This document shows positions 944 to 19,143 of a DNA stretch of 64,000 bases, in pieces. The stretch is from a bacterium (GTDB lineage Bacteria; Patescibacteriota; Minisyncoccia; JACQLN01), in assembly GCA_030697795.1 (NCBI GenBank), contig JAUYOV010000006.1, positions 21,722 through 85,721 of the forward strand. The letters are read 5' to 3'. Position 1 is the stretch's first letter; every line of letters begins with the position of its first letter. Made by a program: the position numbers and the translations under genes. Under the pieces are notes generated by a model. That model was not told the DNA's origin and did not search any database. It was given only the letters and a program-made list of their open reading frames with translations.

Positions 944-1014
944 GTTAGTCACATCAAGGTCAGACCTTTGGTTTGATTTTTTGCCTTATTTTTTGCTATT
1001 ATGCCTTAAGTAAT

Positions 1015-1087
1015 CCGCCCGTAGCTCAGTTGGTAGAGCAGCTCCCTTTTAAGGAGATGGTCGTAGGTTCGACTCCTACCGGGCGGA
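1015..1087 (+). tRNA. tRNA-Lys (anticodon UUU)
   Basis: Cloverleaf read by hand: acceptor ccgcccg/cgggcgg, D-arm gctc..gagc, anticodon loop cuUUUaa, T-arm gtagg-ttcgact-cctac, discriminator a. No encoded CCA. Confidence 0.85.
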
Positions 1088-1228
1088 CAGATTAAGTATT
1101 TAGAAATTAGTAATTAGAAATTAGAAATTTAGTTGATATGTATCTTTTTTATTTCACATTAGCTATAATTTTGGGATTAGTTTGGGCGTATTTTTTTAAT
1201 CTTAAAAAAAGAAAAAAATAATAAAAAA

Positions 1229-2437
1229 ATGAATCGAAAATCTATCAGTTTATTTGTATTTGCCTTAGCGTTGGTGCTTACCGCTTTCTATGGCGGTTTT
1301 TTCTATGGTAAAAGCCAAGTGCCTGCTATTTATTCAATTGAAGGCGTTGGTAACAAGGCCTTAAACCAACCCGATGATATAGACTTTAGTTTGTTTTGGG
1401 ATGCGTGGAAAATTATTCAAGATAAATATGTAGATAGGTCCAGCTTAGATAAAAAGAAAATGGTTTATGGCGCTATAGACGGCATGGTCAAATCGCTTAA
1501 AGACCCGTACACTACTTTTTTTGAACCGGTGGAAGCTAAGCAGTTTAAAGACGATGTTTCGGGTTCGTTTGGTGGCATTGGCGCCGAGATTGGCATTAGA
1601 AAAGAAATTTTAACAGTTATTTCTCCGTTAGAAGATTCTCCAGCTCAAAAAGCTGGTTTAAGGGCGGGCGATAAAATTTTAAAAATTAACGATACTATTA
1701 CGGCCGATATGGGCATAAGCGAAGCGGTGAGTTTAATACGCGGGCCCAAAGGTACTGCGGTTAAATTAACCATAAGCAGAGCGGGTGCTGATGCTGTAAA
1801 AGAAATTAGCATTGTGCGCGACGACATTAAAATTCCTACTGCCAAATGGCAACTTAAAAACGACAAAATTGCCTACATTCAATTATTTAATTTTGGAGAA
1901 ACTGCGCCCTTTGAATTTAGAAAAACAGTGCTGGATGTTTTACGCAGCCCAGCCGATAGAATTGTTTTAGATTTAAGAAATAACCCCGGCGGTTATTTAG
2001 AAGTTTCTCAAGATATTGCTGGTTGGTTTATGGAATCAGATAGTGTTGTCGCCATAGAAGATTTTGGCAATGGCACACCATCCAAAAAATATCTAGCCAA
2101 TGGTAATTCTGTTTTAAAAAATATGCCGATAGTGGTTTTAATGAATGAAGGCTCGGCTTCGGCCTCCGAAATTTTAGCAGGAGCTTTACGCGATAATAAA
2201 AAAGTAAAATTAATAGGCGCTAAAAGTTTTGGTAAAGGTTCGGTGCAACAGTTAGAAAATATGCGCGAAGGCACCAGTTTAAAAGTTACTATTGCCAAGT
2301 GGTTAACGCCTTCGGGAAAATCTATTATGCAGGAGGGTTTAGAACCCGATGTTAAAATTGAATTTACCAAAGATGATATTGATAATTTAAAAGATCCGCA
2401 ATTGGATAAAGCCATAGAAATTATATTAACAAAATGA
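1229..2437 (+). CDS. ctpA: carboxyl-terminal processing protease (S41 family) with PDZ domain
   Basis: N-terminal TM, PDZ-like KAGLRAGDKILKIN, S41 motifs LDLRNNPGG and GSASASEILAGAL, and KSFGKGSVQ. Confidence 0.85.
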   Translation: MNRKSISLFVFALALVLTAFYGGFFYGKSQVPAIYSIEGVGNKALNQPDDIDFSLFWDAWKIIQDKYVDRSSLDKKKMVYGAIDGMVKSLKDPYTTFFEPVEAKQFKDDVSGSFGGIGAEIGIRKEILTVISPLEDSPAQKAGLRAGDKILKINDTITADMGISEAVSLIRGPKGTAVKLTISRAGADAVKEISIVRDDIKIPTAKWQLKNDKIAYIQLFNFGETAPFEFRKTVLDVLRSPADRIVLDLRNNPGGYLEVSQDIAGWFMESDSVVAIEDFGNGTPSKKYLANGNSVLKNMPIVVLMNEGSASASEILAGALRDNKKVKLIGAKSFGKGSVQQLENMREGTSLKVTIAKWLTPSGKSIMQEGLEPDVKIEFTKDDIDNLKDPQLDKAIEIILTK

Positions 2438-3011: not shown

Positions 3012-3028
3012 GGATAAAAATTAAAAAA

Positions 3029-3055
3029 GGACCGCCCTTCCTGGAAGGGCGGTCC
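3029..3055. terminator. family B palindrome acting as bidirectional terminator between convergent rplI and rpmA
   Basis: ggaccgcccttcc-t-ggaagggcggtcc, flanked by aaaaaa and tttt. Confidence 0.7.
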
Positions 3056-3066
3056 TTTTGTCTTCG

Positions 3067-3339
3067 CTAAATCACACTAACGGTCTTTACTAATTTCTTA
3101 TGCCCAGTAAAATCCATTTTCACTTTAGTGCTAAATTTTACTATGCCATCTTTTCCAGCGTAGAGCGTGTCGTCGCCACCCTTTTTAACATTTTTACCAG
3201 CCCAAACCTTACTGCCTCTTTGTTTAACTATAAGATTACCAGCTTTGGCTATTTGGCCGTCGTGGAGTTTTATACCTAATCTTTTTGATCTAGAATCGCG
3301 ACCTAACGCGGTAGATCCAGTTGCCTTTGTATGTGCCAT
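3067..3339 (-). CDS. rpmA: 50S ribosomal protein L27
   Basis: [24 protein letters not shown]...[11 protein letters not shown]...[13 protein letters not shown] matches the L27 consensus. Confidence 0.9.
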
Positions 3340-3550
3340 ATTTTTCTAAATTTATTCTAAATTTAGCTAAAAATATGAGCATCCCTCCGAAGCTCTGAAA
3401 GAGCGAAGGGGGACAGCCATATTCATAACTATCTGATTCGCAAAATTTATGCAGGACACTGTCCAAAATCGTCCCAACATTCTAACAAACCTTTCCCTTT
3501 CTCGTCAACAGTCACAAAATTATGCTATAGCATAAAAAGCTGACTATTAT

Positions 3551-3602
3551 ATACCTTTAGTACACCGAGCATACGATCGTATGCTCGGTGTACTAAAGGT
3601 AT
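3551..3602. repeat. family A palindromic element, copy A1 (perfect 52-bp palindrome, core GAGCATACGATCGTATGCTC)
   Basis: atacctttagtacaccGAGCATACGATCGTATGCTCggtgtactaaaggtat. Intergenic. Confidence 0.85.
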
Positions 3603-3773
3603 ACCCCTCGACTTCCCTCAATTTGACTCGGGACAAGGTCGCTCAAGGTAATCCCTCGTCGCTCTGCCCCCTCGGGATATTTTTCGCCCTTATTTTTATA
3701 TTATATTGTTTGCGAAAAACAAAACCCGCAAGGTTTGACCTTGAACGGGTTACCCGGAATACTCCGGAAGTGC

Positions 3774-4058
3774 TTACGCTCTATATCGTTTACTTTCACG
3801 ATAGACATTGCCGAGGGCAGTCATAAATTCCGAGCTACGCAAATTCTCTGCCAGCGCGGCACGCTTCTTTGAAGGAACGTCGCCGAGAAACTCATCAACA
3901 TGGGCGAGGACGTCATGCCTGTCGACTGGTTCACCCCGGTTCGCACGGTCTGCAAACTCCATTAAAACATCCGCTGTGGTCAGAGGGCGACCCAGCCGCT
4001 CTTTGAGATCTACGAGCATCTGTCTAGCCATTGATTCATTACTCTTTTGGTCTGACAT
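3774..4058 (-). CDS. hypothetical protein; local GC about 55% versus about 36% background
   Basis: Strong SD (aaggaggtaacagt-ATG on minus strand). Compositionally foreign. No recognisable domain. Confidence 0.45.
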   Translation of the reverse strand: MSDQKSNESMARQMLVDLKERLGRPLTTADVLMEFADRANRGEPVDRHDVLAHVDEFLGDVPSKKRAALAENLRSSEFMTALGNVYRESKRYRA

Positions 4059-4152
4059 ACTGTTACCTCCTTATTTTGGGGAAAGAACTATATATTTAGT
4101 CTAGAACAAGATTTACAATAAGTAAAGAAAGGTCATATTTTGAATTCAATAA

Positions 4153-4178
4153 CCCTACTTCGCTAAAGCTACGCAGGG
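4153..4178. repeat. family C hairpin element, copy C1 (ccctac-ttcgctaaagctac-gcaggg)
   Basis: Intergenic, downstream of ychF. Same loop sequence as the copies at 15395 and 43866. Confidence 0.7.
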
Positions 4179-4196
4179 CAGGCATTTCCACCTTTT

Positions 4197-5282
4197 TTAG
4201 ACTCTGAATTCAATCACGTCGCCGTCTTTGACGATATATTCCTTACCTTCAATGCGCAATAGGCCTAGATCGCGGGCTTTGGACCATGAGCCGGCTTCTA
4301 GGAGTTTGTCCCAGCGTATTACCTCGGCTCGTATAAAACGCTCTTCAAAGTCGGAATGGATGGCCCTGCCTGCACGAGGGGCTTTGGAATCAATAGGTAT
4401 AGTCCAAGCGCGGGTTTCGTCTTCGCCTGTGGTGAAGTAGGTCATTAAGCCCAAAGTTTCGTAGCTTTTGCGTATAAGCTTTTTTAAGCCAGTTTCTTTA
4501 ATGCCCGCCATTTCTAGTATTTCTTTTTTGTCGGCGTCAGTCGCGTTTGACGCGATTTCCTCAATCCCGATAGCTATGGCTAAATAGGGAATATTTCCAA
4601 GGAGTTTTTTTAAAGCTTCATCTGGTTGCCAGTTTTCTTCAAGTTCCGTTTCCGAAATATTAAATACAACCAGCATTGGTTTGTATGTTAAAATGCCGAT
4701 TTCGTAGGCGATTTTAATTTCGTCAGAATCAAGCTGGTCGTGGAGCAATTTGTTTTCTTCCAACAAATTTTTTATTTTCTGCAAGACATCTCGGCGTTTA
4801 ACTTTAATTTTGTCGCTCCGCCAGCTGGCGGATTTGGCTTCGGATTCAGCTCTGGTTAATGCTTTAGAAACTATGTCTAAATCTTTTAAAATTAATTCTA
4901 AATTTATGATTTCAAAATCCCGCACAGGATCTGGTGTGTTTTCTACATGTATAATATTGTCGTTTTTAAAAACTCTAACTAGGTGCAAAATAGCATCTAC
5001 ATCGCGAATGTTATTTAAAAATTCATTGCCTAAACCTAAGCCCTGCGAAGCGCCTTTTACTAAACCAGCAATATCGGCAAATTCTATTATGGCCGGCACG
5101 GTTTTTTTGGAATGAGAAAATTCGCTTAGTTTTTGTAAGCGTTCGTCTGGTATTGCAACCACGCCGATATTAGGGTCAATAGTTGCAAAAGGATAGTTAG
5201 CTATCACTACTTCCTTTTGGGTTAAGGTTTTAAATAGAGTAGATTTTCCAACGTTGGGTAAACCAACAATACCGATCTTCAT
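4197..5282 (-). CDS. ychF: ribosome-binding ATPase YchF (Obg-like GTPase family)
   Basis: MKIGIVGLPNVGKSTLF G1 motif and C-terminal TGS-like YIVKDGDVIEFRV. Start taken at the MKIGIV Met (5282). The longer ORF to 5339 reads through a GC-rich 5'UTR repeat. Confidence 0.88.
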   Translation of the reverse strand: MKIGIVGLPNVGKSTLFKTLTQKEVVIANYPFATIDPNIGVVAIPDERLQKLSEFSHSKKTVPAIIEFADIAGLVKGASQGLGLGNEFLNNIRDVDAILHLVRVFKNDNIIHVENTPDPVRDFEIINLELILKDLDIVSKALTRAESEAKSASWRSDKIKVKRRDVLQKIKNLLEENKLLHDQLDSDEIKIAYEIGILTYKPMLVVFNISETELEENWQPDEALKKLLGNIPYLAIAIGIEEIASNATDADKKEILEMAGIKETGLKKLIRKSYETLGLMTYFTTGEDETRAWTIPIDSKAPRAGRAIHSDFEERFIRAEVIRWDKLLEAGSWSKARDLGLLRIEGKEYIVKDGDVIEFRV

Positions 5283-5369
5283 GCATGCGAATAGCGCTCG
5301 CTCGTGCTTCGCACTCGCGAAATGCGAATGCGCCCACACGAATCAAATGCTATAATTATTCAAGATAAC

Positions 5370-6791
5370 ATGACTAGCAATATATTTCACGAATACGATA
5401 TTCGAGGGCACTATCCAGCAGAAGTTAACGAAACTATTTTTTATAACTTAGGTAAAGCGTATTACGAAGCTTTTAAACCTAAAAAAATTGCTATTGGGCG
5501 CGATTCAAGATTATCGTCGGACACTTTATTTTTGTATTTAGCTTCGGCGTTACAAAATGGGAAAGTAAAAATTATAGATCTAGGCTGTGTGAGCACACCT
5601 TTTTGTTTGTGGTATTCGCAAAAATATAAAGTGGATGCCTTAATGATAACAGCTTCTCATAATCCTAAAGATGAAAACGGGCTTAAGCTTTTTTCGGCAA
5701 AAAATGGAATAGTAGATAAGCTTAATGGTTTGGGTAAATTAGAAACCAAGTTTAAAGGCATTGGTATAAGCGAAGCTAAAATAGAACACAAAATTGATTC
5801 AAAAAAACATTCGCCCATAGCCGAATATGTTGATTTTATAATTAAAAAATATACTCCTGCTTCGCCCACCCTTCGCACAAGGCTACGGAGTGGCACGGCA
5901 AGGCTTCGCAGGATAAGCAAAATCAAAATCGCGCTAGATCTTTCTAATGGTTCGGCCGGGCAGGAATTTATTTTGGCATTGGAAAAATTAAAAATAGATT
6001 TTGCCACTTTAAACGAAACCCCCAACGGAAAATTTCCCGCGCATAGTCCCAATCCACTTTTAGCCGAAAGCCAAAAAGGCATAAAAATATTGCTTAAGCA
6101 GAGTAAGTTTAGTTTTGGCGCAATTATAGATGGTGATGGCGACAGAATTTTGTTCTTAGATGAACTAGGCGAAGTAGTAGATTCAAGTTATATATTTTCT
6201 TTGTTTATAGAAAATTATCTGCCCTATAAAAAAGCTAAAGCGATTGTAAAAAATATTGCTATTGGGCGGATTGTAGACGAAATTGCCAAGAAAAAAGGCT
6301 TGCAATTAGGCGTGGTGCCGGTGGGCAGAACCAAAATGCAGACGGTTATGAAAAAAATTAAGGCGGAAATGGGTGCAGAAAAATCTGGGCATTATTTTTT
6401 TAAAGATTTATATTATGGCGATAATGCCGTCGCCGCAATACTGGCCATGGTTTTTATTTTAGCTAAAAAGAAAAAATCTTTGTCTAAACTTTTAGAGCCC
6501 TATAAAAATTATATAATTATTCCAGAAATAAACATTCCTTTTGAGGGCAGGGTGGATAAAATTTTAGGCGCCATAAAAGATAAATATAAAAACGAAAACA
6601 TAAGCGAGATTGACGGCTTAACCGTAGAGAATCCAATCCCCGCAAAATCGCAAGGCGATAGCGGGGCAAGCTGGCGGTTTAACCTGCGCCGATCTAACAC
6701 CGAAAGCGTCTGGCGATTGAATCTAGAAGGTAAAAATAGGGAAGAGGTTGATAAGTTGAAAGAGGAGGTAGAGAATATCTTAAAATCTTAA
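5370..6791 (+). CDS. alpha-D-phosphohexomutase (phosphomannomutase/phosphoglucomutase/GlmM-like)
   Basis: Active-site TASHNP, metal loop DGDGDR, C-terminal phosphate loop FNLRRSNTE. Start at MTSNIF. Contains an in-frame GC-rich insertion coding TPASPTLRTRLRSGTARLRRIS (about 5863-5930). Confidence 0.85.
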   Translation: MTSNIFHEYDIRGHYPAEVNETIFYNLGKAYYEAFKPKKIAIGRDSRLSSDTLFLYLASALQNGKVKIIDLGCVSTPFCLWYSQKYKVDALMITASHNPKDENGLKLFSAKNGIVDKLNGLGKLETKFKGIGISEAKIEHKIDSKKHSPIAEYVDFIIKKYTPASPTLRTRLRSGTARLRRISKIKIALDLSNGSAGQEFILALEKLKIDFATLNETPNGKFPAHSPNPLLAESQKGIKILLKQSKFSFGAIIDGDGDRILFLDELGEVVDSSYIFSLFIENYLPYKKAKAIVKNIAIGRIVDEIAKKKGLQLGVVPVGRTKMQTVMKKIKAEMGAEKSGHYFFKDLYYGDNAVAAILAMVFILAKKKKSLSKLLEPYKNYIIIPEINIPFEGRVDKILGAIKDKYKNENISEIDGLTVENPIPAKSQGDSGASWRFNLRRSNTESVWRLNLEGKNREEVDKLKEEVENILKS

Positions 6792-6871
6792 AAATAGCAC
6801 GAGTCAGCGATCGCTGACTCGTGCTAAATGTTCTCCCTTAATACTCCCTTAGTAGTAAATAATAGTAAAAT

Positions 6872-8773
6872 TTATACTTGAATCAATACTGGCAAAATCA
6901 TTGGCCGGCGGTGAGTTTTTTGGAATAAGAATTGGCCCAAGCGTTCTTTTATTTCTTCCTTTATAAGCGCATCGTTAAAGGGGTGTTCGCTGGCCGTAGC
7001 GCCTTCCACAACTTTTCTAATAATCATTCTAGCGTCTAACAACATTTGTTTGTTGTCGCGCAAATAAATAAATCCACGGGAAATAATATCTGGGCTACCA
7101 CGCACTCGGCCACTTTTTGAATCTACCACAGCTACCACCATAAACATGCCATCTTCGGCTAGCATTTGTCTGTCGCGAAGTACTACTGAACCGACATCAC
7201 CAACACCCAAACCGTCTACCATAACCATCTCGGCCGGCACCGATTTTTTATCTACAGAAATTTGATCGGCAGTTACTCTAACCACATTGCCATTTTCTAC
7301 TACAACTATGTTTTCTTCTGGCATACCAAAACGTAGCCCAAGATCTTTCATCGCAAATAACATTGAAAGTTGGCCGTGGACAGGCATTAAGAATTTTGGC
7401 CTAACCAATTCCAACATATACATTAAATCGTCCTGTTGGCCGTGTCCGCCGGCGTGAATATCTAGCATTTTGTAGTTGTAAACTTTTACGCCGTGCCTAA
7501 GTAAATTATCTTTTAAATGCTGAATAGTGCGTTCATTGCCGGGAATAATAGAGGAAGAAAATATAATAGTATCTCCCTTTTTAAGTTCCAGTTGTTTGTG
7601 GCGGTGGGTGGCTAAACGCATCAAAACGGCGTTTTCTTCGCCTTGGCCGCCGGTACCCAAAACAGTAATTTTGCTGTCTGGGTATTTATTGCTTTCGGAA
7701 GCAGAAATTAAAGTACCTTTTTTAGTTTTGATGTAGCCCAAAACTTTAGAAACTTCTACCGCAGCTTTCATGCTAAAGCCTTCCACCACCACTTTACGAT
7801 TATATTTTTCGGAAATAGCAATAATTTGTTGGACGCGGTTAATGGCCGATGCAAACATACCCACAATAATTCGGCCCGGCGCTTCTTTAATTAATTTTTC
7901 TAAGTTGTCTTGAATATCGGATTCAGAAATAGAATGGCCCGGTTCTTCGGCGCCCGTACTGTCGCTCATAACCAAAAGCAAACCATCGTCGCCAATCTTT
8001 TTTAAGCGATCGATCTCGGCGGGTTTATCTATAACAGGATTATGGTCAAATTTAAAATCCGAAGTGCACATTATATTGCCCACTGGAGTTTTAATAAGCA
8101 AAGCCATATCGTCGGGAATACTGTGGTTGATGTGGATAAATTCAACTTCAAACACGCCAATTTTTCTTTTATCACCGCTTCTTATTTCGTCTATCATTAA
8201 CTTGGGCAGTTGTTTAAATTCTTCGTGGCGTTTTATAACCAAACCCTTGGTTAACGGCGCGGCATAGATCATTGGATTCTCTAGGCGTTCTAGCATATAA
8301 GGCAAAGCGCCAATGTGATCAAAGTGGCCGTGTGTAAAAATAAGACCGCTTATTTTATCTGTTTTATCTTCCAAATATTTTATATTAGGAATTAAAAGAT
8401 CTATACCCGGCATATCTTCCTCGGGAAATCTTACGCCAGCATCAATCAGCAAAATATCGCGATCGTCTTTATCGTAATCACGCCATTCTATCACCGTCAT
8501 ATTTCGGCCAACTTCGCCTAAGCCTCCTAACGGGATAATTCTTAAACAGTTTTTCTGCGGAGTTTTTGCCTGTTGTTCTGCGTTTTCTTCGTTGTTTCTT
8601 GGCATGAAGTTTGCCCTTGGGGTTCTTGGCCCACGAAAACTGTCTCCATCTTGGCTTGAGGATGATCTGAAAAATAGTTTACCTGAATTTGATGGTCGGC
8701 CACTGTGCCTGTTACCTTGTCTATTATTTTGTCTGTTACCACTATGTGGTCTGTATGGTTGATTCATAGTCAA
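6872..8773 (-). CDS. rnj: ribonuclease J (metallo-beta-lactamase / beta-CASP)
   Basis: IIPLGGLGEVGRNM and HGHFDHIGALPY. About 75-aa Arg/Asn/Ser-rich disordered N-terminal extension. Confidence 0.85.
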   Translation of the reverse strand: MTMNQPYRPHSGNRQNNRQGNRHSGRPSNSGKLFFRSSSSQDGDSFRGPRTPRANFMPRNNEENAEQQAKTPQKNCLRIIPLGGLGEVGRNMTVIEWRDYDKDDRDILLIDAGVRFPEEDMPGIDLLIPNIKYLEDKTDKISGLIFTHGHFDHIGALPYMLERLENPMIYAAPLTKGLVIKRHEEFKQLPKLMIDEIRSGDKRKIGVFEVEFIHINHSIPDDMALLIKTPVGNIMCTSDFKFDHNPVIDKPAEIDRLKKIGDDGLLLVMSDSTGAEEPGHSISESDIQDNLEKLIKEAPGRIIVGMFASAINRVQQIIAISEKYNRKVVVEGFSMKAAVEVSKVLGYIKTKKGTLISASESNKYPDSKITVLGTGGQGEENAVLMRLATHRHKQLELKKGDTIIFSSSIIPGNERTIQHLKDNLLRHGVKVYNYKMLDIHAGGHGQQDDLMYMLELVRPKFLMPVHGQLSMLFAMKDLGLRFGMPEENIVVVENGNVVRVTADQISVDKKSVPAEMVMVDGLGVGDVGSVVLRDRQMLAEDGMFMVVAVVDSKSGRVRGSPDIISRGFIYLRDNKQMLLDARMIIRKVVEGATASEHPFNDALIKEEIKERLGQFLFQKTHRRPMILPVLIQV

Positions 8774-8876
8774 ATATTAAATTACTAATTTCTAATATCC
8801 AATTTCTAATAAAAACCTAAATGTCTAAATGATTTAATCTTAATTAGACTTTTAAGCATTAGATATTTTATTAGTG

Positions 8877-8960
8877 TGCCCTCGAGAGGATTTGAACCTC
8901 TATGAGCTTGCGCTCGCAGCGACCTGAACGCTGTGTGTCTGCCGATTTCACCACGAGGGC
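8877..8960 (-). tRNA. tRNA-Leu (anticodon CAG), class II with long variable arm
   Basis: Minus-strand reading: acceptor gccctcg/cgagggc, anticodon stem cagcg / loop uuCAGgu, long variable arm, T-arm gaggttcaaatcctc, discriminator a. Confidence 0.8.
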
Positions 8961-8969
8961 TCTCTTCTT

Positions 8970-10712
8970 TTATTTCTTTATTCTCTTAGTAGCGGTATGC
9001 CATTTATTTATATTTTCAAACCTTTGGGACGGAGTATTGATGGCTTCGGCATTAAGGCCTTTAATTTTTCCAGATACAGCATAAATATAATTTGGACTAT
9101 AAAGGAATATAGCTGGAATATCTTGCATTATTATTTTCTCAAAGGCCTCATAGTTTTTTATTCTTTTGGTTGGATTATTTTCTTGCCGGGCTGATTCTAA
9201 AAGGCCATCAACTTTTTTATTATTGTATAAAGCTAAATTTAAACCAGGATCTCTTCTTTGGGTAGAATGCCAGAAAGAGAATGGGTCGGGGTTTAAACTC
9301 AACACCTCTCCAAAAAGTATGGCTTGATATTGGCGAGGCCTAATATTTTGGGTTTGAATGCCGTTAACGGGCACAACATCTAAATCTACTTTAGCTCCTA
9401 TTTTTTCCCAGTTTTGCTTTAGAGCGCTGGCCACTTGAGTGTGTTCGGGCCAATCGGTTGTGGTTAAGGCAAATTCTAATTTTGTTATTTTTCCTTTTAT
9501 TTTTTTCTCTCTTAGGCCATCTGCGCCAACTTTCCAGCCAGATTTATCGAGCACGTTTTTAGCGGTCTCAATATCAAAGTCATACTTTGTGTTTGATTCA
9601 TTAATTTTTAAAAGCCCAAAAGGCAACGGGCCGTTTTGAATTTGAGCTTCTTCTTTTAAAATATCTTTTACTATATCTTCCTTGTCTGTAGCATAAGATA
9701 AAGCTTTTCTGACATCGGTTTCAGCTAAAACATCGGATCTAGTTTGGTTAAAGAATACACCGTAATATCTAGGAAGTTTTATGTCGTAAAAAATTAGATC
9801 TCTGGATTTTTTAAGTTCGGTTTTGTCTAAAACTGAACTCAAAGAAAAGCCATCAATTTCGCGGCGCTTAAAAGCGCTAACAAGGTCTTCTTGATTTTCG
9901 TAGAAACGGATTCTTAGCAGAGAGATATTTGCTTTTTCATAATAGCGCGGATTAGGAGAAAACTCCATAGACTTTATAATTCCCGAAGCATTTTTTGTTA
10001 TTTTTGTAACTTGATATTGGCCCAAGCCTACCGGTTTTAAATTGAGCTGGGTTAATAAAAAGTTTTGAGGCTGAACGTTTTCCCAAATATGGCGAGGGAG
10101 AATGCCCAAGGTAGCGTTTTCCAAAAAGGGTTCGTAGGCTACGGGTAATTTTATTATAAAGCTATGATCATCTATTTTTTCTATTCTGACACCTTGCCAG
10201 TTATTTCTAAGCGGGCTTTGAAACTTGGAATCCTTAATTAGGTTTATGGTAAAAACCACATCATCTGTTGTTAAGGATTTTTTATCTGGCCAGCTTAAGT
10301 TTTCCCTAAGCTTAAATTCATAAATTTTGCCGTTGTCTCTTATTTGATAACTTTCGGCGAGGTCCGGAATAATTTCTCCTTTTTCATTATGTTTAACTAA
10401 GCCCGAAAAAACTAAAGTGGTTAAATCGCGATCAACTTCGCTAGCCGAAGCCAAGGCGGGGTTAATATAGCGCGGTTCGCCAATAATGCCTTCGGCATAT
10501 GTACCGCCCTCGGAAGCAGCCGAGGTTCTTAAAAACCAATAATCATAAACGCCTAAAAATAGGGTAGAAGTAATAGCTAAGCCTAAAAACACTAAAACAG
10601 CGTTTATTTCTTTTTCGCTTAACTGCCTAAGCAAGTAACGCCAGTGTTTAACCGATAACGAACGCAAAAATTTTATACGTTCCCAAATTTTTTTAAATTT
10701 TTCTTTCAACAA
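8970..10712 (-). CDS. ABC-type peptide/nickel substrate-binding protein, family 5 (OppA/DppA-like), N-terminal TM anchor
   Basis: Length 580 aa. N-terminal hydrophobic anchor then a family-5 SBP-like sequence. No adjacent permease genes. Confidence 0.7.
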   Translation of the reverse strand: MLKEKFKKIWERIKFLRSLSVKHWRYLLRQLSEKEINAVLVFLGLAITSTLFLGVYDYWFLRTSAASEGGTYAEGIIGEPRYINPALASASEVDRDLTTLVFSGLVKHNEKGEIIPDLAESYQIRDNGKIYEFKLRENLSWPDKKSLTTDDVVFTINLIKDSKFQSPLRNNWQGVRIEKIDDHSFIIKLPVAYEPFLENATLGILPRHIWENVQPQNFLLTQLNLKPVGLGQYQVTKITKNASGIIKSMEFSPNPRYYEKANISLLRIRFYENQEDLVSAFKRREIDGFSLSSVLDKTELKKSRDLIFYDIKLPRYYGVFFNQTRSDVLAETDVRKALSYATDKEDIVKDILKEEAQIQNGPLPFGLLKINESNTKYDFDIETAKNVLDKSGWKVGADGLREKKIKGKITKLEFALTTTDWPEHTQVASALKQNWEKIGAKVDLDVVPVNGIQTQNIRPRQYQAILFGEVLSLNPDPFSFWHSTQRRDPGLNLALYNNKKVDGLLESARQENNPTKRIKNYEAFEKIIMQDIPAIFLYSPNYIYAVSGKIKGLNAEAINTPSQRFENINKWHTATKRIKK

Positions 10713-10760
10713 ATGATTAATTAGCTATATTAGCGTTAGATTCGCTATATTAGCGAGAAG

Positions 10761-10970
10761 TTATAAAACTATATTAGCTAGAGCCGTGCCAAAAAACAAA
10801 ATAGATAAGATAATTGTAGCTACGAAAAGATATTTTTCGGGGCCTCTTTTGGTGTGATGAAATTCTCCTTCACCTCCAAAAGCGCCAGATAAGCCCGAGC
10901 CTTGGCGCTGAAGCAAGACAGTAATTATTAATAAGACAGCTAAAACGATTTGTATTATATTTATTATCAT
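10761..10970 (-). CDS. secG: preprotein translocase subunit SecG
   Basis: 69 aa with two TM segments and a central Gly-rich loop (LLQRQGSGLSGAFGGEGE). Confidence 0.7.
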   Translation of the reverse strand: MIINIIQIVLAVLLIITVLLQRQGSGLSGAFGGEGEFHHTKRGPEKYLFVATIILSILFFGTALANIVL

Positions 10971-10979
10971 TTTTGCAAT

Positions 10980-11045
10980 CCCGTTAGAAACAGTCCGCCC
11001 CTAGGCCCTTTGGGCGCGCAGAGCGCGGGCGTGGTTTCTAACGGG
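10980..11045. repeat. family D element: 12-bp inverted repeat (cccgttagaaac / gtttctaacggg) enclosing a 42-bp GC-rich multi-hairpin core
   Basis: Seen directly. Immediately downstream of secG. Confidence 0.6.
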
Positions 11046-11161
11046 ACAATAAAAACCTACCCTTTTAGGGTTAAAAACAGAGTATTTGTTAAGTAAAAAG
11101 AGGTTTTTTTAGTACAGTTTAATGGTAGCAATTTGAGTTAGATAAGTCAATTTTAAAATAA

Positions 11162-11190
11162 AAGACCGGCAGTTGCGTTTGCAACTGCCG
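11162..11190 (-). terminator. rho-independent terminator of the 11200..11568 gene
   Basis: ccggcagttgc-gtt-tgcaactgccgg, followed by a T-run on the minus strand. Confidence 0.7.
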
Positions 11191-11199
11191 GGTGATTGG

Positions 11200-11568
11200 T
11201 CACGAGGTGCTCATGACCCTCACATTTGATGATCCAGAGCAGACAAGAATGAACCTAGATCTGGCTAACTCTTTGTCTGACCTGTACACCAGATCCAGAC
11301 CTTTTTTTGGGTTGCCCGGATCGCTTGCGAGGCAGAGGAAGAATTCGGTATGGCGAGACTTCCTCACATCGACAAACTCTCTGGAAGTTGCCACCTTGAC
11401 CTCTTTGCCTAGCGTGCCATCTTTCTTTTTTAGGCACGCTACGAGACCGCGTCTAGTGGAAAGCAGCAGATGCTCGGCTCCGTTCTTAAAATAGCCGGCA
11501 ACACTGTATCCTTCGGGCAATTCCACACTGCTTAGGTCTGGAACTTCTCTGGTCGTTTGCATTTCCAA
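11200..11568 (-). CDS. hypothetical protein, GC-rich (about 50%)
   Basis: ORF with a GGGAGA SD and a terminator downstream. Compositionally foreign. May be spurious in GC-rich DNA. Confidence 0.4.
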   Translation of the reverse strand: MEMQTTREVPDLSSVELPEGYSVAGYFKNGAEHLLLSTRRGLVACLKKKDGTLGKEVKVATSREFVDVRKSRHTEFFLCLASDPGNPKKGLDLVYRSDKELARSRFILVCSGSSNVRVMSTS

Positions 11569-11872
11569 TTCTCCCCAGATATTGGAAATAGGTTATTGCT
11601 TGCCCGCGTCAAACACGGGATGAAAAATCTTTATTTCTAGATGACCTTTAAGTATTCTCCTTTCTGCCGCATTTGAGTTTGGAGGTCATCGTCTCCCCCT
11701 TTAGATTTTAAGAGGGCTGACTAACGGGGGTAGTAGAGGGGAGGTCCACTAGTCCGTTCCGTCAGCGTAGTACATACGCTTAGGTTGTCAGCCCTCATTT
11801 TTCATGAGGATCGGTAAAACTTAAGGTACTAATATACTAATTAAAATCTTTTATTGTTAAGTTGTCAAGCCT

Positions 11873-13261
11873 TTATTTAGAAATAGCTTTTCTATGCAAT
11901 TTTCTATGATAGTTTATAGCAAATCGGTGAGCTTCATCGCGGATTGATTGAAAAAGATATTTTAAGCTTCTGCCAAATTTTTGAGCCAGTATCGGTTCTT
12001 TATTTTCGGGCAAATAGATTTCTTCTAATTTTTTAGCTAAAGATACAACTCTAATTTTGGTGGGGGACAATATTTCTAGCGCTGCATTTAGTTGTGTTCG
12101 GCCGCCATCCACGATTATCAACTGGGGCAGTGTCCAGTTATTGTTTAATCTGCGTTTAATAATTTCGGCTATCATAGCGGGATCGTTTATACCGTGCACG
12201 GTTTTTATTTTAAATTTTCTATATTCGTTTTTATTGGATTTGTATTCGCCGTTTTCTTGCAGTTCAAAAACAACCATAGAACCCACGGCTTCTGCGCCTT
12301 GAAAATTAGAGACGTCAAACGTCTCTAATCTTTTTGGGTTTTCTTTAAAGCCTAGTAACGTAAAATCGGATTTGTCGTCTTTAAATATAGAAGGCGAAGC
12401 AAATTCAAATTTTTCGGTTAATACTTTGGTATGTTTTAAAACAGAATCAAGGTTTGTTATTTGGTTTTTAATAGTTTTAGCTAATTCAAAGTTTTGGTTT
12501 TTTATTACTTGTTTTATTTCTTTTTTAAATTCTTTAAGTAAAACTTGGCTTCGGCCGGATAGCACCGATTTAATTGCCCGAATGTTTTTTTTATATTCAT
12601 TTAGCATGAGTCTGCGATCGCTGGCTCGTGCTAAGTTTGTTGATTTAAGGCAACAGAAAGTTAAGCACCGGCCCATATGTGCATTTAAACATTTGGTCTC
12701 ATGTTTTTGCTTGCAGGTGCAGTAGGGAAAAATATCGCGTAAAATATGCAAAGTTTTTCTAACAGCAGTGCCGTCGGTGAAAGGACCTAAACAGCTTTTA
12801 GTTTTTAGCTTATAGCTGTTAGGTTGATGCAGAGGAATAATTTTAGGGAATTCTTCTTTAGCTTGCCCTGAGCCCGTCGAATGGGTAATAGCAACGTATA
12901 AATAGTTTTTACTATCACGCATTAAGACATTAAACTTGGGTTTGTGTTTTTTAATAAGCTCGGATTCTTTTATTAAGGCTGCTATTTCCGAGTCAGTCCG
13001 CAATATTTCTATATCGGTAATTTCGGCAAGCATTTTAACTTTTGCTGGATTAAAAAACTTAACCCCTTTGTGCTTGTCCTCCGAAGCTTTAGCGAAGGAG
13101 GAAAAGTAGCTTTTGACTCTATTTTTTAAATTCCCCGATTTGCCAATATAAATAATCTCGCCGGCTTTATTCTTGAATAAATACACCCCCGGCGAAGCAG
13201 GTAATTTGGCTAGTTTTTTAGTGATTGACAGCATTTTCATTATCTGGTAATAATAAGACAA
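11873..13261 (-). CDS. uvrC: excinuclease ABC subunit C, short form without C-terminal (HhH)2 domain
   Basis: GIY-YIG module GVYLFKNKAGEIIYIGKSGNLKNRVKSYF and RNaseH-like endonuclease motif DEAHRFAINYHR. True start probably a few codons inside (MKMLSI). Confidence 0.8.
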   Translation of the reverse strand: MSYYYQIMKMLSITKKLAKLPASPGVYLFKNKAGEIIYIGKSGNLKNRVKSYFSSFAKASEDKHKGVKFFNPAKVKMLAEITDIEILRTDSEIAALIKESELIKKHKPKFNVLMRDSKNYLYVAITHSTGSGQAKEEFPKIIPLHQPNSYKLKTKSCLGPFTDGTAVRKTLHILRDIFPYCTCKQKHETKCLNAHMGRCLTFCCLKSTNLARASDRRLMLNEYKKNIRAIKSVLSGRSQVLLKEFKKEIKQVIKNQNFELAKTIKNQITNLDSVLKHTKVLTEKFEFASPSIFKDDKSDFTLLGFKENPKRLETFDVSNFQGAEAVGSMVVFELQENGEYKSNKNEYRKFKIKTVHGINDPAMIAEIIKRRLNNNWTLPQLIIVDGGRTQLNAALEILSPTKIRVVSLAKKLEEIYLPENKEPILAQKFGRSLKYLFQSIRDEAHRFAINYHRKLHRKAISK

Positions 13262-13302
13262 CGAATCAGTTACGGCAAGTTCTTAAACAAAGGAGGCTCA
13301 AG

Positions 13303-13515
13303 ATGGTACATTTAAGACTTACACATGCGTGTGAAAGTGGTGATCACGAGATGTGTTCAGGTGGTGAGGGATCTCCCGATACTTTTGGAGGTTGGAAATG
13401 CACCTGTCATTGTCATCACAAAAATGTTCCTTATGAAGAAACGATGAGTGCTAAGATAGCCGCACACCAATTTAGAGATGTTAAGCACTGGAATTTTAAT
13501 AGAAAACCTTCATAA
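13303..13515 (+). CDS. small Cys/His-rich protein (70 aa), putative metal-binding
   Basis: Strong SD aaaggagg plus 6 nt plus ATG. Sequence ...THACESGDHEMCSGG...GGWKCTCHCHHKN... . Flanked by two hairpin terminators. Confidence 0.5.
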   Translation: MVHLRLTHACESGDHEMCSGGEGSPDTFGGWKCTCHCHHKNVPYEETMSAKIAAHQFRDVKHWNFNRKPS

Positions 13516-13540
13516 AAAAAGCTCCACATTGGATACAAAA

Positions 13541-13605
13541 CTCCCGAAGGGTTACCCTTCGGGAGTTTTATATCCAGCACCTTTTTATTAGAAAAGGTGC
13601 TGGAT
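13541..13605. terminator. two tandem hairpins forming a bidirectional terminator
   Basis: ctcccgaagg-gtta-cccttcgggag + T-run; and atccagcacctttt-tattag-aaaaggtgctggat. Confidence 0.65.
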
Positions 13606-13854
13606 CTATTTTACCGCGAACATTTCTTCTAAACGATTTACTCGGCGTTCCAAACCTTTGATTTGTTCGCCCTGTTGTTTGAGAATTATTTTTTCTATAT
13701 TATCTATTCTTTCCCCAAGATGTTTCTCAACTTTATCGAGCTGTTCTTTGGTGGCCATCTTGTTTTCAATACTGGTTATCTTACTTTCAACACTATTAAA
13801 ACCACGAGCTACCATTCGGGCTAAATCTTCGATTGTAGTTTTTTTGGCTGGCAT
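13606..13854 (-). CDS. small coiled-coil protein (82 aa), paralogous to 51697..51954
   Basis: Shared pattern ...RIDNIEK.. / ..RLDRRFDDLEKKLD... with heptad-like spacing. Confidence 0.45.
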   Translation of the reverse strand: MPAKKTTIEDLARMVARGFNSVESKITSIENKMATKEQLDKVEKHLGERIDNIEKIILKQQGEQIKGLERRVNRLEEMFAVK

Positions 13855-13892
13855 AATACATCCATTATAGACTCAGTCATAAACAAGTCAAA

Positions 13893-13923
13893 CCCCGCCC
13901 TTGAGGTAGTCTCAAGGGCGGGG
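13893..13923. repeat. family B-related palindrome, copy B4 (ccccgcccttgag-gtagt-ctcaagggcgggg)
   Basis: Shares CCGCCCTT...AAGGGCGG arms with B1-B3. Lies in the divergent region upstream of uvrA. Confidence 0.6.
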
Positions 13924-13961
13924 TGGATTTTTGGCGGGTTTTGATGTAGAATGGGTGGTTT

Positions 13962-16916
13962 ATGTCTAGCCAAGATTACATCAAAATCCGCGGGGCGAGG
14001 GTGCATAATTTAAAAAATGTTAGTTTAGACATTCCCAAAAACAAGTTGGTGGTTATTACCGGCCTTTCGGGTTCGGGCAAGTCGTCGCTGGCGTTTGATA
14101 CGCTGTATGCTGAAGGGCAAAGAAGATATGTAGAAAGTTTGTCGGCTTATGCTCGGCAATTTTTAGGCATTATGGATAAGCCCGATGTGGATTCCATAGA
14201 TGGCTTGTCGCCGTCAATATCCATAGACCAAAAAAGCGTATCAAAAAATCCGCGCTCTACTGTTGGTACTATTACCGAAATTTATGATTACCTGCGTTTG
14301 TTGTTTGCTAGAGTCGGCAAACCTCATTGCCCCAAGTGTGATCGCGTAGTTTCGCGCCAAAGTCCAACGCAAATAACAGATAAAATTTTAAAATTTAAAA
14401 AAGGCACGGCTTTAGTAATTTTGGCGCCAATCATTCGCGATCAAAAAGGTGAACACAAAGCAGTTATTATGAAGTTATCAAATTCCGGCTATGCCAGAGT
14501 TAGAGTTAACGGTGAAATTTTAAAAGTTGAAGAAGCTTTAAAATTAAATTTAGAAAGATACAAGCGCCATTCAGTAGAAGCTGTGATAGACAGAGTGACC
14601 CTAGAAAGTGATCCCTCCTCCTTCGCCCCCACTTCGCCAAGGCTACGAGGGGCAAGCAGGGCTTCGGAGGACAAGGATCTTCGTGCTCGCATTGCGGAAT
14701 CCATAGAACAAGCTCTTAAATTAGGTGACGGTTTGATGATTGTCCAACACCTGGTGTTGGACAAGTATTCAAAAAAGGACCGCCCTTCCAGGAAGGGCGG
14801 TCCTTCCGAGGAGCTGTTTTCCGAAGCGATGTCGTGCGCTTATTGTGGTATAAATTTTCCAAATGTTGAACCAAGATCATTTTCTTTTAATAGCCCGCAC
14901 GGCGCTTGCCCGCATTGCACAGGTTTAGGTAATACCAAAGAAATTGATCCAGATTTAGTTTTTCCAAGCAAGCATATAACTTTGGCGGAAGGCGCCATTA
15001 AGCCGTGGGCTTCGGCTTCGCACCGCGTCGGCTACCAAGGTTGGTATTGGAGTATTGTGGAAGAAATTTCGCAAAAATACAGTTTTTCAGTTTCGGTGCC
15101 TGTAAAAGATTTACCGCAAAAATTTATAAACATTATTTTATATGGTGACAAAGATCGCGATGGCGATTTTGAGGGAGTTATTCCAAATTTATTGCGCCGT
15201 TACCGCGAAACCGAATCAGAATTTACCAGAGCCGAGATAGAACGCTATATGATAGATAAGGTTTGTCCGGTATGTAAGGGCGCACGTTTAAAGCCAGAAG
15301 TTTTAGCGGTTAAGTTTTTAGGAAAAAATATTAGCTATGTGGCAGATTTATCTATAAATGAATGCAAAAAGTTTTTTTCGGAGATTAAAGGTGGCCCTGC
15401 TTCGCTAAAGCTACGCAGGGTAAACTTAACCCAATCGGAGCTTCAAATAACTTTGCCAGTAGTTAAAGAAATTTTAAACAGATTAGATTTTTTGCTAAAT
15501 GTCGGGCTAGATTATTTAACACTTTCTCGTTCTTCGGCTACGCTTTCTGGTGGTGAAGCTCAACGTATTCGTTTAGCTACACAAATTGGTTCTGGTTTAA
15601 CAGGGGTTCTATATATACTAGACGAACCTTCTATTGGTTTGCATCAGCGCGATCAAAATAGGTTAATTAAAACGCTTAAACATTTACGCGACATCGGCAA
15701 CACTGTAGTGGTGGTGGAACATGATGAGCAGACTATCAATAATGCCGATTGGGTGATAGATGTAGGGCCGGGCGCGGGTAAACACGGCGGTAAAATAGTT
15801 TTTGAAGGAACGCCTCAACAGCTCAAAAAATCAGATAGCATTACAGGGCAGTATTTGTCTGGAAGGAAGAAAGTAGAAGGTGGAAAATTGAAAACGGAAA
15901 AGAAAAATTTATCTTCTACTTTCCATAATCTACCTTCTATTGTTATCAAAGGCGCACAGGAAAATAATCTCAAAAACATTACAGTCAAAATTCCCTTGGG
16001 ACAGTTTGTAGCAATCACGGGCGTTTCGGGTTCGGGTAAGTCTAGTTTGGTAAACGATATTTTGGCTAAATTTTTATTGCAAAAATTTTATAATGCTAAA
16101 GAATCTCCCGGAAAATTTACAGAAATAACTGGTTGGGAAAATTTAGATAAAGTTGTGGTGGTAGACCAAAGCCCGATAGGCCGAACACCGCGTTCTAACC
16201 CAGCCACATATACCGGAATGTTTAGTGTTATTCGCGATTTATTTGCCGCCACGCGCGAAGCAAAAGTTAGAGGTTTCGGGCCAGGCCGGTTTAGTTTTAA
16301 TGTAAAAGGCGGCAGATGCGAAGTGTGCGAAGGGCAGGGGGTAAGAAAAATTGAAATGCATTTTTTGCCCGATGTTTATGTGGAGTGCGAAGAATGCCAT
16401 GGCACGCGCTATAACAAAGAAGCGCTAGAGGTGGAATACAAAGGCAAAAATATTGCTCAAGTTTTAAAAATGCCGGTGGAAGACGCTTTTGAATTTTTTA
16501 AAAATATTCCCTCGTTAAAACAAAAAATTGGAACATTGCTGGAAGTCGGTTTAGGTTATATGGAATTAGGCCAGCCGGCTACCACATTGTCTGGCGGGGA
16601 GGCTCAAAGAATAAAACTTGCCACAGAATTATCGCGGCGCGATACGGGCAAAACTTTATATAGTTTGGATGAACCAACCACGGGTTTGCATTTTGAGGAT
16701 ATAAATAAACTGCTTAGGGTTTTGCATTTGCTGGTTGAAAAAGGCAATACGGTTTTAGTTATTGAACATAATTTGGATGTTATTAGAACGGCGCATCATA
16801 TTATAGACTTAGGTCCAGAAGGCGGTAATGGCGGAGGCAAAATTGTAGCGGTGGGCACTCCGCAGCAAATCAGCCAAACTAAAAATAGTTACACTGGACA
16901 GTTTCTGCGTAAGTGA
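13962..16916 (+). CDS. uvrA: excinuclease ABC subunit A
   Basis: Two ABC ATPase modules ([23 protein letters not shown]; [13 protein letters not shown]), Zn-finger Cys clusters, LSGGEAQR signatures. 984 aa because of three in-frame palindromic-element insertions. Confidence 0.95.
14777..14803. repeat. family B palindrome, copy B2, in-frame inside uvrA (encodes [12 protein letters not shown])
   Basis: aaaaaa-ggaccgcccttcc-a-ggaagggcggtcc. Same flank as terminator copy B1. Confidence 0.85.
15395..15420. repeat. family C hairpin, copy C2, in-frame inside uvrA (encodes [10 protein letters not shown])
   Basis: ccctgc-ttcgctaaagctac-gcaggg. Stem fully compensated relative to C1 and C3. Confidence 0.8.
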
Positions 16917-16918
16917 TC

Positions 16919-16953
16919 GGAAGGACCGCCCTTCCAGGAAGGGCGGTCCTTCC
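16919..16953. repeat. family B palindrome, copy B3, immediately after the uvrA stop (35-bp near-perfect palindrome)
   Basis: ggaaggaccgcccttcc-a-ggaagggcggtccttcc. Marks the left edge of a GC-rich island. Confidence 0.85.
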
Positions 16954-17047
16954 TGTACTCAATATTGACATTATTGGCAAATATTTGCTATGTTTTATGA
17001 GTTCTTTTTTAACTAATTTCCCAAAACCCTTTATAATGGGAGGAACT

Positions 17048-18158: not shown

Positions 18159-18318
18159 GTCCAAATGGCATAGTCAGCAATTTATGCGATCACATAAATT
18201 GCTGACCGGTGCTAATTATTGCAAGAAACTATACGACGCAAAATTTGGGTTGTCTTACTGGGGTTGACCCCGTTAGAGATCGCGCGGGCTCGTAGCGACC
18301 CCCCATCTCTAATTGGGG

Positions 18319-18346
18319 TTGACACCTTCTTGTATATACGTATAAT
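18319..18346 (+). promoter_or_regulatory. consensus sigma70-type promoter (TTGACA-16nt-TATAAT)
   Basis: Seen directly. Preceded by direct repeats ctggggttgac and an inverted repeat tagagat/atctcta. Confidence 0.55.
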
Positions 18347-18349
18347 GAA

Positions 18350-18846
18350 ATAGTTCACTAAAATAACACAGGTAGAGGTAATGGCGGGTCGCTTCAAGCG
18401 AACCTCACTAAAGGCGGGGCAGGGAACTCCCCTCCAGAGTACCAAACCCCGCTTGTAAGCCAAACAGGATTCCATATCGGGCTATGTCCGGTTTGGAATG
18501 TCCTCCCTCCCCACGATTCTCGTGAGTTGGGCGTGGTCCGATACCTGTTTAGCTGAAAGGCTGGATGCGACCGCTAGGCATCCAGCCCGAAATTAAAACT
18601 CTGCAAGGGCAGAGGATGTAGTTCTTTATAATTTTGTTTGGCCAGAAAGGTCTCTTGAAAACGAGTAGAGCTTTGCCTCTCGACCTCGTATTCTTCCCGG
18701 ATCTTTCTGGCCTTGTATAGTCGAGGAACTTTTACGGTTCATCTTCTCCTGTTCGTCTTTCTTCCTTTCAACGGATTGGGGTTGATTGCCGTGCAGAGGG
18801 AAGTTCCTCGCACTCCCGCTCCGACCTTGCGTCGGAGCGGTTTTTT
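18350..18846 (+). ncRNA. candidate structured non-coding RNA (about 500 nt), class unknown
   Basis: GC-rich (about 52%) segment with no convincing ORF, between a consensus promoter and a terminator. Multiple long-range complementary segments, e.g. ggccagaaag...ctttctggcc and ggctggatgc...gcatccagcc. Confidence 0.35.
18817..18846 (+). terminator. rho-independent terminator (copy 2)
   Basis: ccgctccgac-cttgc-gtcggagcgg + tttttt. Confidence 0.7.
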
Positions 18847-18911
18847 AATTCCCTACAGGAATCCCGCACAAAGTGCGGAGAGGAGATCATTTAATCTAGA
18901 TAGTTCAAATT

Positions 18912-18949
18912 ACGTGTCCTGAGCATACGATCGTATGCTCAGGACACGT
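18912..18949. repeat. family A palindromic element, copy A2
   Basis: acgtgtcctGAGCATACGATCGTATGCTCaggacacgt, a perfect 38-bp palindrome. Same core as A1 with different compensated arms. Confidence 0.85.
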
Positions 18950-19143
18950 TTCAGAATTTATATACATATTAAAAAATCACTAGAAAAATTTAGAAAACCA
19001 AAAGAGCTTGACCCTAGTTCTAACATTTGCTACATTATCAATCGTAATAGAAGAGTGATAAAATCATTTAGATAATAGAGCATAGAAGGTGGAAAGTAGC
19101 TTTAAATCTATCTTCTAAAATCTACTTTCTAAATTTCAAACAT

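Follow-up and report, generated by a model that had tools for sequence, protein, structure and literature searches.

We examined a 64,000-nt stretch of contig JAUYOV010000006.1 (GenBank assembly GCA_030697795.1, forward-strand positions 21,722 to 85,721) from a patescibacterial genome; this whole stretch is called the window, and all window coordinates are counted from its first letter. Its GC content is about 39%, against which a set of short palindromes, here called Family B, stands out as GC-rich islands. They share the core GGACCGCCCTTCC-N-GGAAGGGCGGTCC, which occurs in three exact copies at 3029-3055, 14777-14803 and 16923-16949. The original prediction had placed palindromes near 3029, 14777 and 16919, and the exact sequences are indeed present there. 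In what follows we argue that Family B is probably a repetitive extragenic palindromic (REP) repeat of the type that forms REP doublets (REPINs, REP doublets forming hairpins), and that its unit is cognate to a Y1 (HUH) transposase of related Patescibacteria that resembles the REP-associated tyrosine transposases (RAYTs).

Copy 1 (3025-3059, AAAAGGACCGCCCTTCC-T-GGAAGGGCGGTCCTTTT) consists of two inverted hairpin units, at 3025-3041 and 3043-3059, on either side of a central T, with AAAA/TTTT as its outer stem. It is the sole hairpin in the 55-nt spacer between two convergent genes: rplI (ribosomal protein L9; 2565-3011, plus strand; Pfam Ribosomal_L9_N and Ribosomal_L9_C), which ends 14 nt ahead of it, and rpmA (ribosomal protein L27; 3067-3339, minus strand; Pfam Ribosomal_L27), which ends 8 nt past it. 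Copy 2 (14775-14805, AAGGACCGCCCTTCC-A-GGAAGGGCGGTCCTT) lies in frame within uvrA (13962-16916, plus strand; Pfam UvrA_inter, UvrA_DNA-bind and ABC_tran). Its core translates to KDRPSRKGG, residues 273-281 of UvrA, in a length-variable loop 11 residues ahead of the zinc-finger cysteines C292 and C295. The open reading frame (ORF) of 984 aa runs intact through the palindrome, which confirms the in-frame insertion proposed earlier. Copy 3 (16919-16953, GGAAGGACCGCCCTTCC-A-GGAAGGGCGGTCCTTCC) has the longest arms (17 nt) and lies 3 nt past the uvrA stop codon (TGA, 16914-16916), ahead of what resembles the promoter of the gene that follows (TTGACA-18-TATGTT, 16965-16994). For this gene, the ATG at 17048 is the most likely start, rather than the GTG of a mechanically predicted ORF that overlaps copy 3.

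The 13-nt arm occurs six times in the window with no mismatches, whereas 0.56 +/- 0.76 occurrences are expected even when up to two mismatches are allowed (dinucleotide-preserving shuffles, none of 100 reaching six). Chance and convergently evolved terminators can both be ruled out, given this shuffle test, the 27-35 identical bases and the copies in other genes and genomes described below. No fourth copy was found anywhere in the 64 kb, even at three mismatches; all three copies fall within a span of 14 kb, and the other 50 kb of the window hold none. There are no direct repeats beside any of the copies that could represent a target-site duplication, in agreement with what is expected of Y1 transposition.

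The palindromes had also been described as terminators, a description that fits copy 1 but not the other two. As RNA, copy 1 folds at -29 kcal/mol on the plus strand (tail UUUUGUCUU) and at -28.5 kcal/mol on the minus strand (tail UUUUUUAAUUUUU), with U-tracts on both strands, and a terminator scan flags its minus strand. With its GC-rich hairpin of 16-17 bp, two U-tracts and a position between convergent genes, copy 1 is much like an intrinsic terminator; judging from its sequence, it probably replaced an ancestral terminator and serves to terminate both rplI and rpmA. Copies 2 and 3 differ from intrinsic terminators in lacking a U-tract on the sense strand: copy 2 (-29 kcal/mol) has one on the antisense strand only, and copy 3 (-34.5 kcal/mol) has none and may at most act as a 3' stabiliser or weak pause site. 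Family B is also unlike intrinsic terminators in that an identical sequence recurs at unrelated sites and is linked to a transposase gene.

The repeat unit and its sites in close relatives

The unit of Family B is a DNA mini-hairpin of 15-17 nt with the stem (NN)GAAGG/CCTTC(N'N') and the loop ACCGC, in which two to four extra pairs extend the GAAGG/CCTTC core. Folded as DNA, single units reach -4.4 to -6.5 kcal/mol. Each palindrome (27-35 bp) consists of two such units in inverted orientation, separated in the window by a 1-nt spacer, which is how a REP doublet, or REPIN, is defined (PMC3337134, PMC3116915). The stem pairs beyond the core covary between lineages, appearing as GG:CC, CG:CG, AG:CT or AA:TT. 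Pair 5-21 is GC in seven cases, AU in four and CG in three, while pair 6-20 is GC in 14 and AU in two. The covariation score was 0.266, compared with 0.115 in shuffles (0/500 reached it) and lower values in every slid control, although these figures come from five or six lineages only. A search of Rfam gave no match for the Family B hairpins.

We compared the syntenic loci of six relatives. The best UvrA homologues belong to metagenome-assembled genomes (MAGs) of Patescibacteria/Parcubacteria type and are 85-88% identical to the UvrA of the window. At the site of copy 2, P0001 (88%) and P0003 (86%) read LLIISKD(S/G)KDELFSE, while P0010 has VQHQVLDKKPADELFSE; neither their protein nor their DNA shows the palindrome. 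Alignment of UvrA orthologues, which had been put forward as a check on the insert, therefore finds it absent from the closest relatives at both levels. The rplI/rpmA spacer of L012/L013 carries a different terminator hairpin (CCCCCCGAT..ATCGGGGGG, with A/T runs). Past the uvrA stop codon, L012/L013 have no hairpin and the promoter of the next gene follows directly, while L008, L009/L010 and L014 each have a different palindrome. Because the closest relatives are empty or differently occupied at each site, all three Family B copies are lineage-specific.

In the relative L008, whose UvrA is 75% identical to that of the window, uvrA contains two degenerate Family B doublets. One of these (GAAGGACCGAC-TTTTGGCGAAG-GTCGGTCCTTC) sits at exactly the codon position of copy 2, is 32 nt long as in the window, and shows one compensatory pair relative to copy 2 (C:G to A:T). 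At the same site, P0012 (L022) has a remnant at most. Two histories would account for the uvrA copy: an ancient insertion, common to this lineage and that of L008, which closer relatives have since lost, or repeated hits at a preferred site. Among homologues, the loop at this site ranges from 0 to about 24 residues and directly precedes the invariant Cys292 and Cys295; in the published architecture of UvrA, the zinc module that these cysteines close sits at the base of the UvrB-binding domain. Copy 2 probably owes its survival to three features: none of its frames contains a stop codon, its length amounts to whole codons, and the loop around it varies in length; it would be a tolerated passenger in a permissive stretch at the end of the UvrB-binding domain.

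Copies in other genomes and a linked transposase gene

We scanned 185,579 species genomes for the exact doublet and added a scan of metagenomes. The species genomes yielded a single locus, L001, where the doublet is an in-frame part of murC; it belongs to a Parcubacteria MAG (JACQLN01). From the metagenomes came L002, with the doublet at the same site in a murC whose product is 72% identical to that of L001 (the doublet reads EGPPF(L/Q)EGRSF in the two), and L003, where two full doublets and one half copy lie inside 800 nt. Four other metagenome matches (L004-L007) share the inner arm only, have other outer stems and contexts, and were discarded as unrelated, terminator-like hairpins of GC-rich organisms. 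A variant doublet, CCAGAAGGACTGCCCTTC-CTAT-GAAGGGCAGTCCTTCTGG, with a compensatory C:G to T:A change, is found in L009/L011 and is missing from L010, although L010 encodes an identical UvrA; this hints at a presence/absence polymorphism of the doublet. The dispersed copies (three in the window, L001, L002, L009/L011 and, in degenerate form, L008) are all inverted pairs with a spacer of 1-4 nt. Family B is a low-copy element, with three doublets per 64 kb here, and not a genome-saturating repeat.

In a genome with about 39% GC, palindromes that are both perfect and GC-rich might raise the suspicion of an assembly or sequencing artefact. However, the uvrA reading frame is preserved, assemblies made independently in different projects show the same doublet at orthologous sites whose flanks have diverged, and the variants in L009/L011 and L008 carry compensatory changes. 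We therefore give an artefact practically no credence.

In six related patescibacterial contigs (L003, L016, L017, L018, L019/L020 and L021), the unit brackets the gene of a Y1 HUH transposase of 220-230 aa. Two full doublets flank this gene in L003 (225 aa; 888-1565, minus strand). We inspected the flanks of the corresponding genes in L016, L017, L018, L019/L020 and L021, whose transposases are 58-83% identical to that of L003 (83% for L021). Throughout L016-L020, the core AAGGACCGCCCTT occurs 20-33 nt upstream of the ATG and again at or just past the stop codon, as well as in reverse complement inside the ORF, at +166 to +169, where it encodes EGRSF; the flanks, read over as much as 20 kb, contain no further core. 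L021 has intact units upstream and at the 3' end, and a degenerate one inside the gene. The window copies also share edges with these loci: the left edge of copies 1 and 2 (AAAAA-GGACC) recurs in L003, L016, L017 and L021 at the unit 5' of the gene, and the flanks of copy 3 (ATC..TG, 3+2 bases) are those of the L003 doublet 3' of the transposase gene. Moreover, the JACQLN01 MAG holds both the transposase (L017) and the in-frame murC doublet (L001).

The internal unit lies at 1386-1400 in L003, 2079-2093 in L016, 10166-10180 in L017, 10158-10172 in L018 and 10166-10180 in L019, and close variants of the EGRSF motif recur across the transposase family. The upstream unit sits roughly at the -35 position relative to a TATAAT just before the transposase ATG. 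From this arrangement, it is a possibility that the upstream and internal units could pair with each other or be bound by the transposase protein, which would give a form of transposase autoregulation.

The L003 protein scores 28.2 bits against Pfam Y1_Tnp, where the cut-off is 23, and among NCBIfam families it matches REP_Tyr_transpos best (46 bits, E 4e-12). Its family is large in Patescibacteria, with at least 7,912 matches, and both the H-F-H motif (H84-F85-H86) and Tyr144 are invariant in 29 homologues. We modelled the transposase with AlphaFold2 (AF2; predicted local distance difference test, pLDDT, 85.5) and searched the model with Foldseek. The best match was 4ER8_A, a complex of the E. 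coli RAYT with a REP hairpin (E 9.7e-7; template modelling (TM) score, normalised by target length, 0.64); the IS608, ISDra2 and IS200 transposases came next at about 1e-4. In both L003 and L017, whose DNA is about 75% identical, the genes run DUF3105 - transposase - FtsK, and DUF3105 is likewise found upstream in L016; neighbours kept in this way fit a RAYT passed on vertically better than an insertion sequence. RAYTs are known to behave like housekeeping genes and to be vertically inherited (PMC5581495). Since the Family B doublets consist of the very unit that brackets a RAYT-type transposase gene in relatives, we regard Family B as REP/REPIN-like.

The palindromes could also have arisen without any transposase, if a terminator or 3'-stabiliser hairpin had been copied locally by homologous recombination, gene conversion or template switching and had reached uvrA by accident. 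All three copies do lie close together, with none in the remaining 50 kb, copy 1 is exactly where relatives have another terminator, and intergenic hairpins at these sites turn over fast among relatives. However, the flanks of the copies have no homology that could drive conversion, and a terminator's U-tract is missing from copies 2 and 3. Local copying also leaves aside the same doublet in murC of other genomes and a unit that stays locked to the Y1 transposase gene across homologues of 58-83% identity, and we consider it unlikely.

Another explanation is that the host selects the motif, either as a DNA-uptake sequence or as the site of a host protein, and that its adjacency to the transposase is secondary. 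The uptake sequences of Neisseria form terminators and are enriched in repair genes. In the loci studied here, the 13-nt core is invariant both upstream of and inside the transposase genes of L003 and L016-L019 (degenerate inside L021), and the murC doublet has been kept in two genomes despite the 72% identity of their MurC proteins. The murC DNA around the doublet is, however, itself about 84% identical between L001 and L002 (a hand count of aligned columns), so the conservation of the doublet is unexceptional, and we rejected the idea that it is specially conserved. DNA-uptake sequences occur at about one copy per kb genome-wide, a density far above the three Family B doublets in 64 kb, and doublets are sparse in the relatives and the related MAG as well: the close or syntenic relatives (more than 100 kb, about 150 kb) contain no doublet except one variant, and the MAG contains one exact doublet. 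A host-selected signal therefore seems very improbable.

Several observations weigh against a REP/REPIN-type repeat. The unit has no GTAG/CGTC tag, and the bases 5' of it vary (tatc, ttac, aaga, aaaa), although some classes of REP are also without a tetranucleotide tag (Quentin 2018, PMC6006769). For a REP family, the copies are very few, with one exact doublet in the JACQLN01 MAG and in all of the 185,579 species genomes. The 64-kb window has no Y1 transposase gene (best tblastn E 0.07; Pfam scans of 24 ORFs). HMMER searches of the chains in the Protein Data Bank (PDB), with a single sequence and with a profile, found no solved relative of the transposase, and its link with 4ER8 is therefore one of fold only. 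The 46 bits for REP_Tyr_transpos are below the 80-bit cut-off for a RAYT equivalog, and the outer units are in direct, not inverted, orientation in several loci (L016, L017 and L019).

These last two points, together with the Pfam Y1_Tnp match, would also suit an autonomous insertion sequence (IS) of the IS200/IS605 type, whose end hairpins are similarly direct; the doublets would then be solo or rearranged ends, and not the REPINs of a domesticated single-copy RAYT. Family B and its transposase resemble this group in their Y1 HUH chemistry, in the hairpins near the ends and in the lack of target-site duplication. They differ from it in the closer fold match to the RAYT 4ER8 than to the IS608, ISDra2 or IS200 transposases, in the syntenic location of the gene, in having no adjoining tnpB, and in a dispersed form made of non-autonomous doublets. 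The protein also has 225 aa with a conserved C-terminal extension, whereas the IS200-family TnpA chains in the fold search have about 130-150 aa. On this evidence, an autonomous insertion sequence appears improbable, and a REP/REPIN-type repeat is the explanation that we favour.

If Family B is a repeat of this type, its doublets would have been mobilised by a transposase of this clade, presumably encoded elsewhere in the genome and outside the window, which would have cut and pasted or copied them via single-stranded DNA. Three new sites within 14 kb would then have been entered after the lineage split from its closest sequenced relatives, with copy 1 taking the place of the ancestral terminator between rplI and rpmA and its A/T runs serving termination. 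The idea of a mobile miniature element that occurs both between genes and in frame, put forward in the original prediction, gains support from the empty sites in relatives, the murC doublets and the half-unit flanking the RAYT-like gene. The element had also been described as spread; its mobility is supported, while its spread is modest, as the single exact doublet among the species genomes indicates.

Other palindromes and inserts nearby

A GC-rich hairpin upstream of uvrA had been taken for a diverged relative of Family B at 13893-13923. The hairpin exists as described (13892-13924, plus strand; ACCCCGCCCTTGAG-gtagt-CTCAAGGGCGGGGT, followed by a T-run; -36.2 kcal/mol), but the kinship is unsupported. 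It has neither the GAAGG/CCTTC stem nor the ACCGC loop, and shares with Family B only the 8-mer AAGGGCGG / CCGCCCTT, of which about 0.65 occurrences are expected by chance in the window (a hand estimate from base composition). It is absent from L009-L015, and L008 keeps a remnant of the right arm only. We therefore treat it as a separate element. It abuts the -35 of a minus-strand promoter-like site (13891-13864) between divergent genes, an odd position for a terminator.

Several other repeats were noted in uvrA. Directly upstream of copy 2, at 14742-14762, lies a second palindrome, GTCCAACACC-W-GGTGTTGGAC, read in frame as VQHLVLD. Further copies are in murG of the window (39360-39380, ..YQSVQHLVLDNN..), in uvrA of L015 (10724-10744) and in uvrC of L008 (2487-2507), and the centre base flips between A and T among the copies. 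Between SSFA and ASEDK (14613-14672) there is a GC-rich composite in-frame insert, where P0001 has only SSFAKASEDK and other UvrA homologues have nothing. Two occurrences of the motif CTTCGCyAArGCTACGmrGGG fall in uvrA (14613-14672 and 15400-15420), and a third is intergenic, at 4158-4178. A scan for enrichment of GC-rich islands in uvrA was too noisy for any claim. At the 5' end of uvrA, relatives carry an in-frame insert ..PVKSPKGRSTGQVISSGF.. (L008 3801-3935; L009 10001-10102). In L008, this insert is flanked by a duplicated coding segment (IKIRGARVH / IRIRGARVH) and resembles a long target duplication or a slippage product.

Elsewhere in the window, a family of palindromes centred on ..GAGCATACGA|TCGTATGCTC.. 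(CGATCG core) is found at 3550-3603, 18912-18949, 39505-39538, 41008-41043 and 55779-55818, and palindromes with this centre also lie 3' of uvrA in L008, L009/L010 and L022. Three imperfect palindromes centred on ATGCTATAGCAT (3507-3548, 23155-23190 and 41081-41116) may represent a shared operator or promoter-associated site. Perfect GC-rich palindromes also occur inside ORFs, namely CCGCGCCCCTTTTGGGGCGCGG (55982-56026, in the ORF at 55826-56416) and TCCGCCAGCTGGCGGA (4814-4838, in ychF).

A conserved non-coding stretch of about 18250-19100 lies between a gene that ends at 18106 and groES (19144). It includes a promoter-like site with a perfect 12/12 match (18319-18346) and a terminator-like hairpin (18816-18840). 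L009-L011 share the stretch in conserved form, and in the window, L012 and L014 a short motif that matches it is present at the equivalent place. Neither threshold gave a match to an Rfam family, and the stretch may be an undescribed RNA gene.

Relation to known repeats and implications

REPs and REPINs with their RAYT (TnpA_REP) transposases have been described in detail (Bertels & Rainey 2011, PMC3116915, PMC3337134; Messing 2012, PMC3479197; Bertels 2017, PMC5581495; Quentin 2018, PMC6006769; also Nunvar 2010 and Ton-Hoang 2012). Family B is similar to these systems in that a short GC-rich hairpin repeat flanks, in relatives of the window, a Y1 HUH gene that keeps its chromosomal neighbours. 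Further similarities are the dispersed inverted doublets, mostly just past the 3' ends of genes and including one between convergent genes, the lack of target-site duplication, and the E. coli RAYT-REP complex (4ER8) as the best structural match. Differences include the tiny unit, which at 15-17 nt is also untagged and very rare, the direct outer units in several loci, and the complementary unit at about +166 inside the transposase ORF, which encodes a near-EGRSF motif in most loci. As the spacer is so short (1-2 nt), the Family B doublet is also a perfect palindrome. The host is different too, being a member of the Patescibacteria; a literature search on RAYTs or REPINs with Patescibacteria, the candidate phyla radiation (CPR) or Parcubacteria found no report.

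Family B can also be set beside other small elements. [quoted passage not shown] Among the Rickettsia palindromic elements (RPEs), RPE-1 is about 100-150 bp long and encodes 30-50 residues, and it is not known to have a cognate transposase. Family B, in contrast, lengthens the protein by 9-11 residues, and in relatives its unit is tied to a Y1 transposase. RPEs were reported as palindromes inserted in frame in genes that still seem functional, and also between genes (Ogata et al. 2000, as cited in PMC3733652 and PMC1779305).

Intragenic REPs, both singles and dimers, are known to be read through in frame, and many of them are in replication and repair genes (Di Nocera 2013, PMC3733652). They include two REP dimers in uvrA of Thioalkalivibrio and two single REPs in uvrB of Rickettsia conorii. 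Those repeats are GTAG- or CGTC-tagged and come from Proteobacteria and other phyla, unlike the untagged Family B with its host of Parcubacteria type. As in-frame REP dimers in uvrA have already been published for other phyla, what we describe is no new kind of system. It does, however, place a system of REP/RAYT type, if our reading is correct, in the ultra-small and streamlined genomes of Patescibacteria, where selfish or domesticated repeats would be least expected.

A compact definition, comprising the unit GAAGG-ACCGC-CCTTC, its doublet and the cognate protein family, should help in annotating in-frame GC-rich inserts and lineage-specific terminators in these genomes. One and the same element appears here to have replaced a terminator and to have lengthened a repair protein by nine to eleven residues. 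Doublets or palindromes were found in and around several excision-repair genes: Family B in uvrA of the window and at its 3' end and, as two degenerate doublets, in uvrA of L008, and the second palindrome family in uvrA and in uvrC of L008. Perhaps this pattern, taken together with the published REPs in Thioalkalivibrio uvrA and Rickettsia uvrB, is not due to chance and reflects a mechanistic or regulatory coupling of the Y1 transposase or hairpin DNA with excision repair, or perhaps the three-unit cassette, with units at the promoter and at +166, regulates itself, but we regard either idea as a long shot. Nevertheless, the recurrence of REP insertion in a repair gene makes the question of why repair genes collect REPs more pointed.

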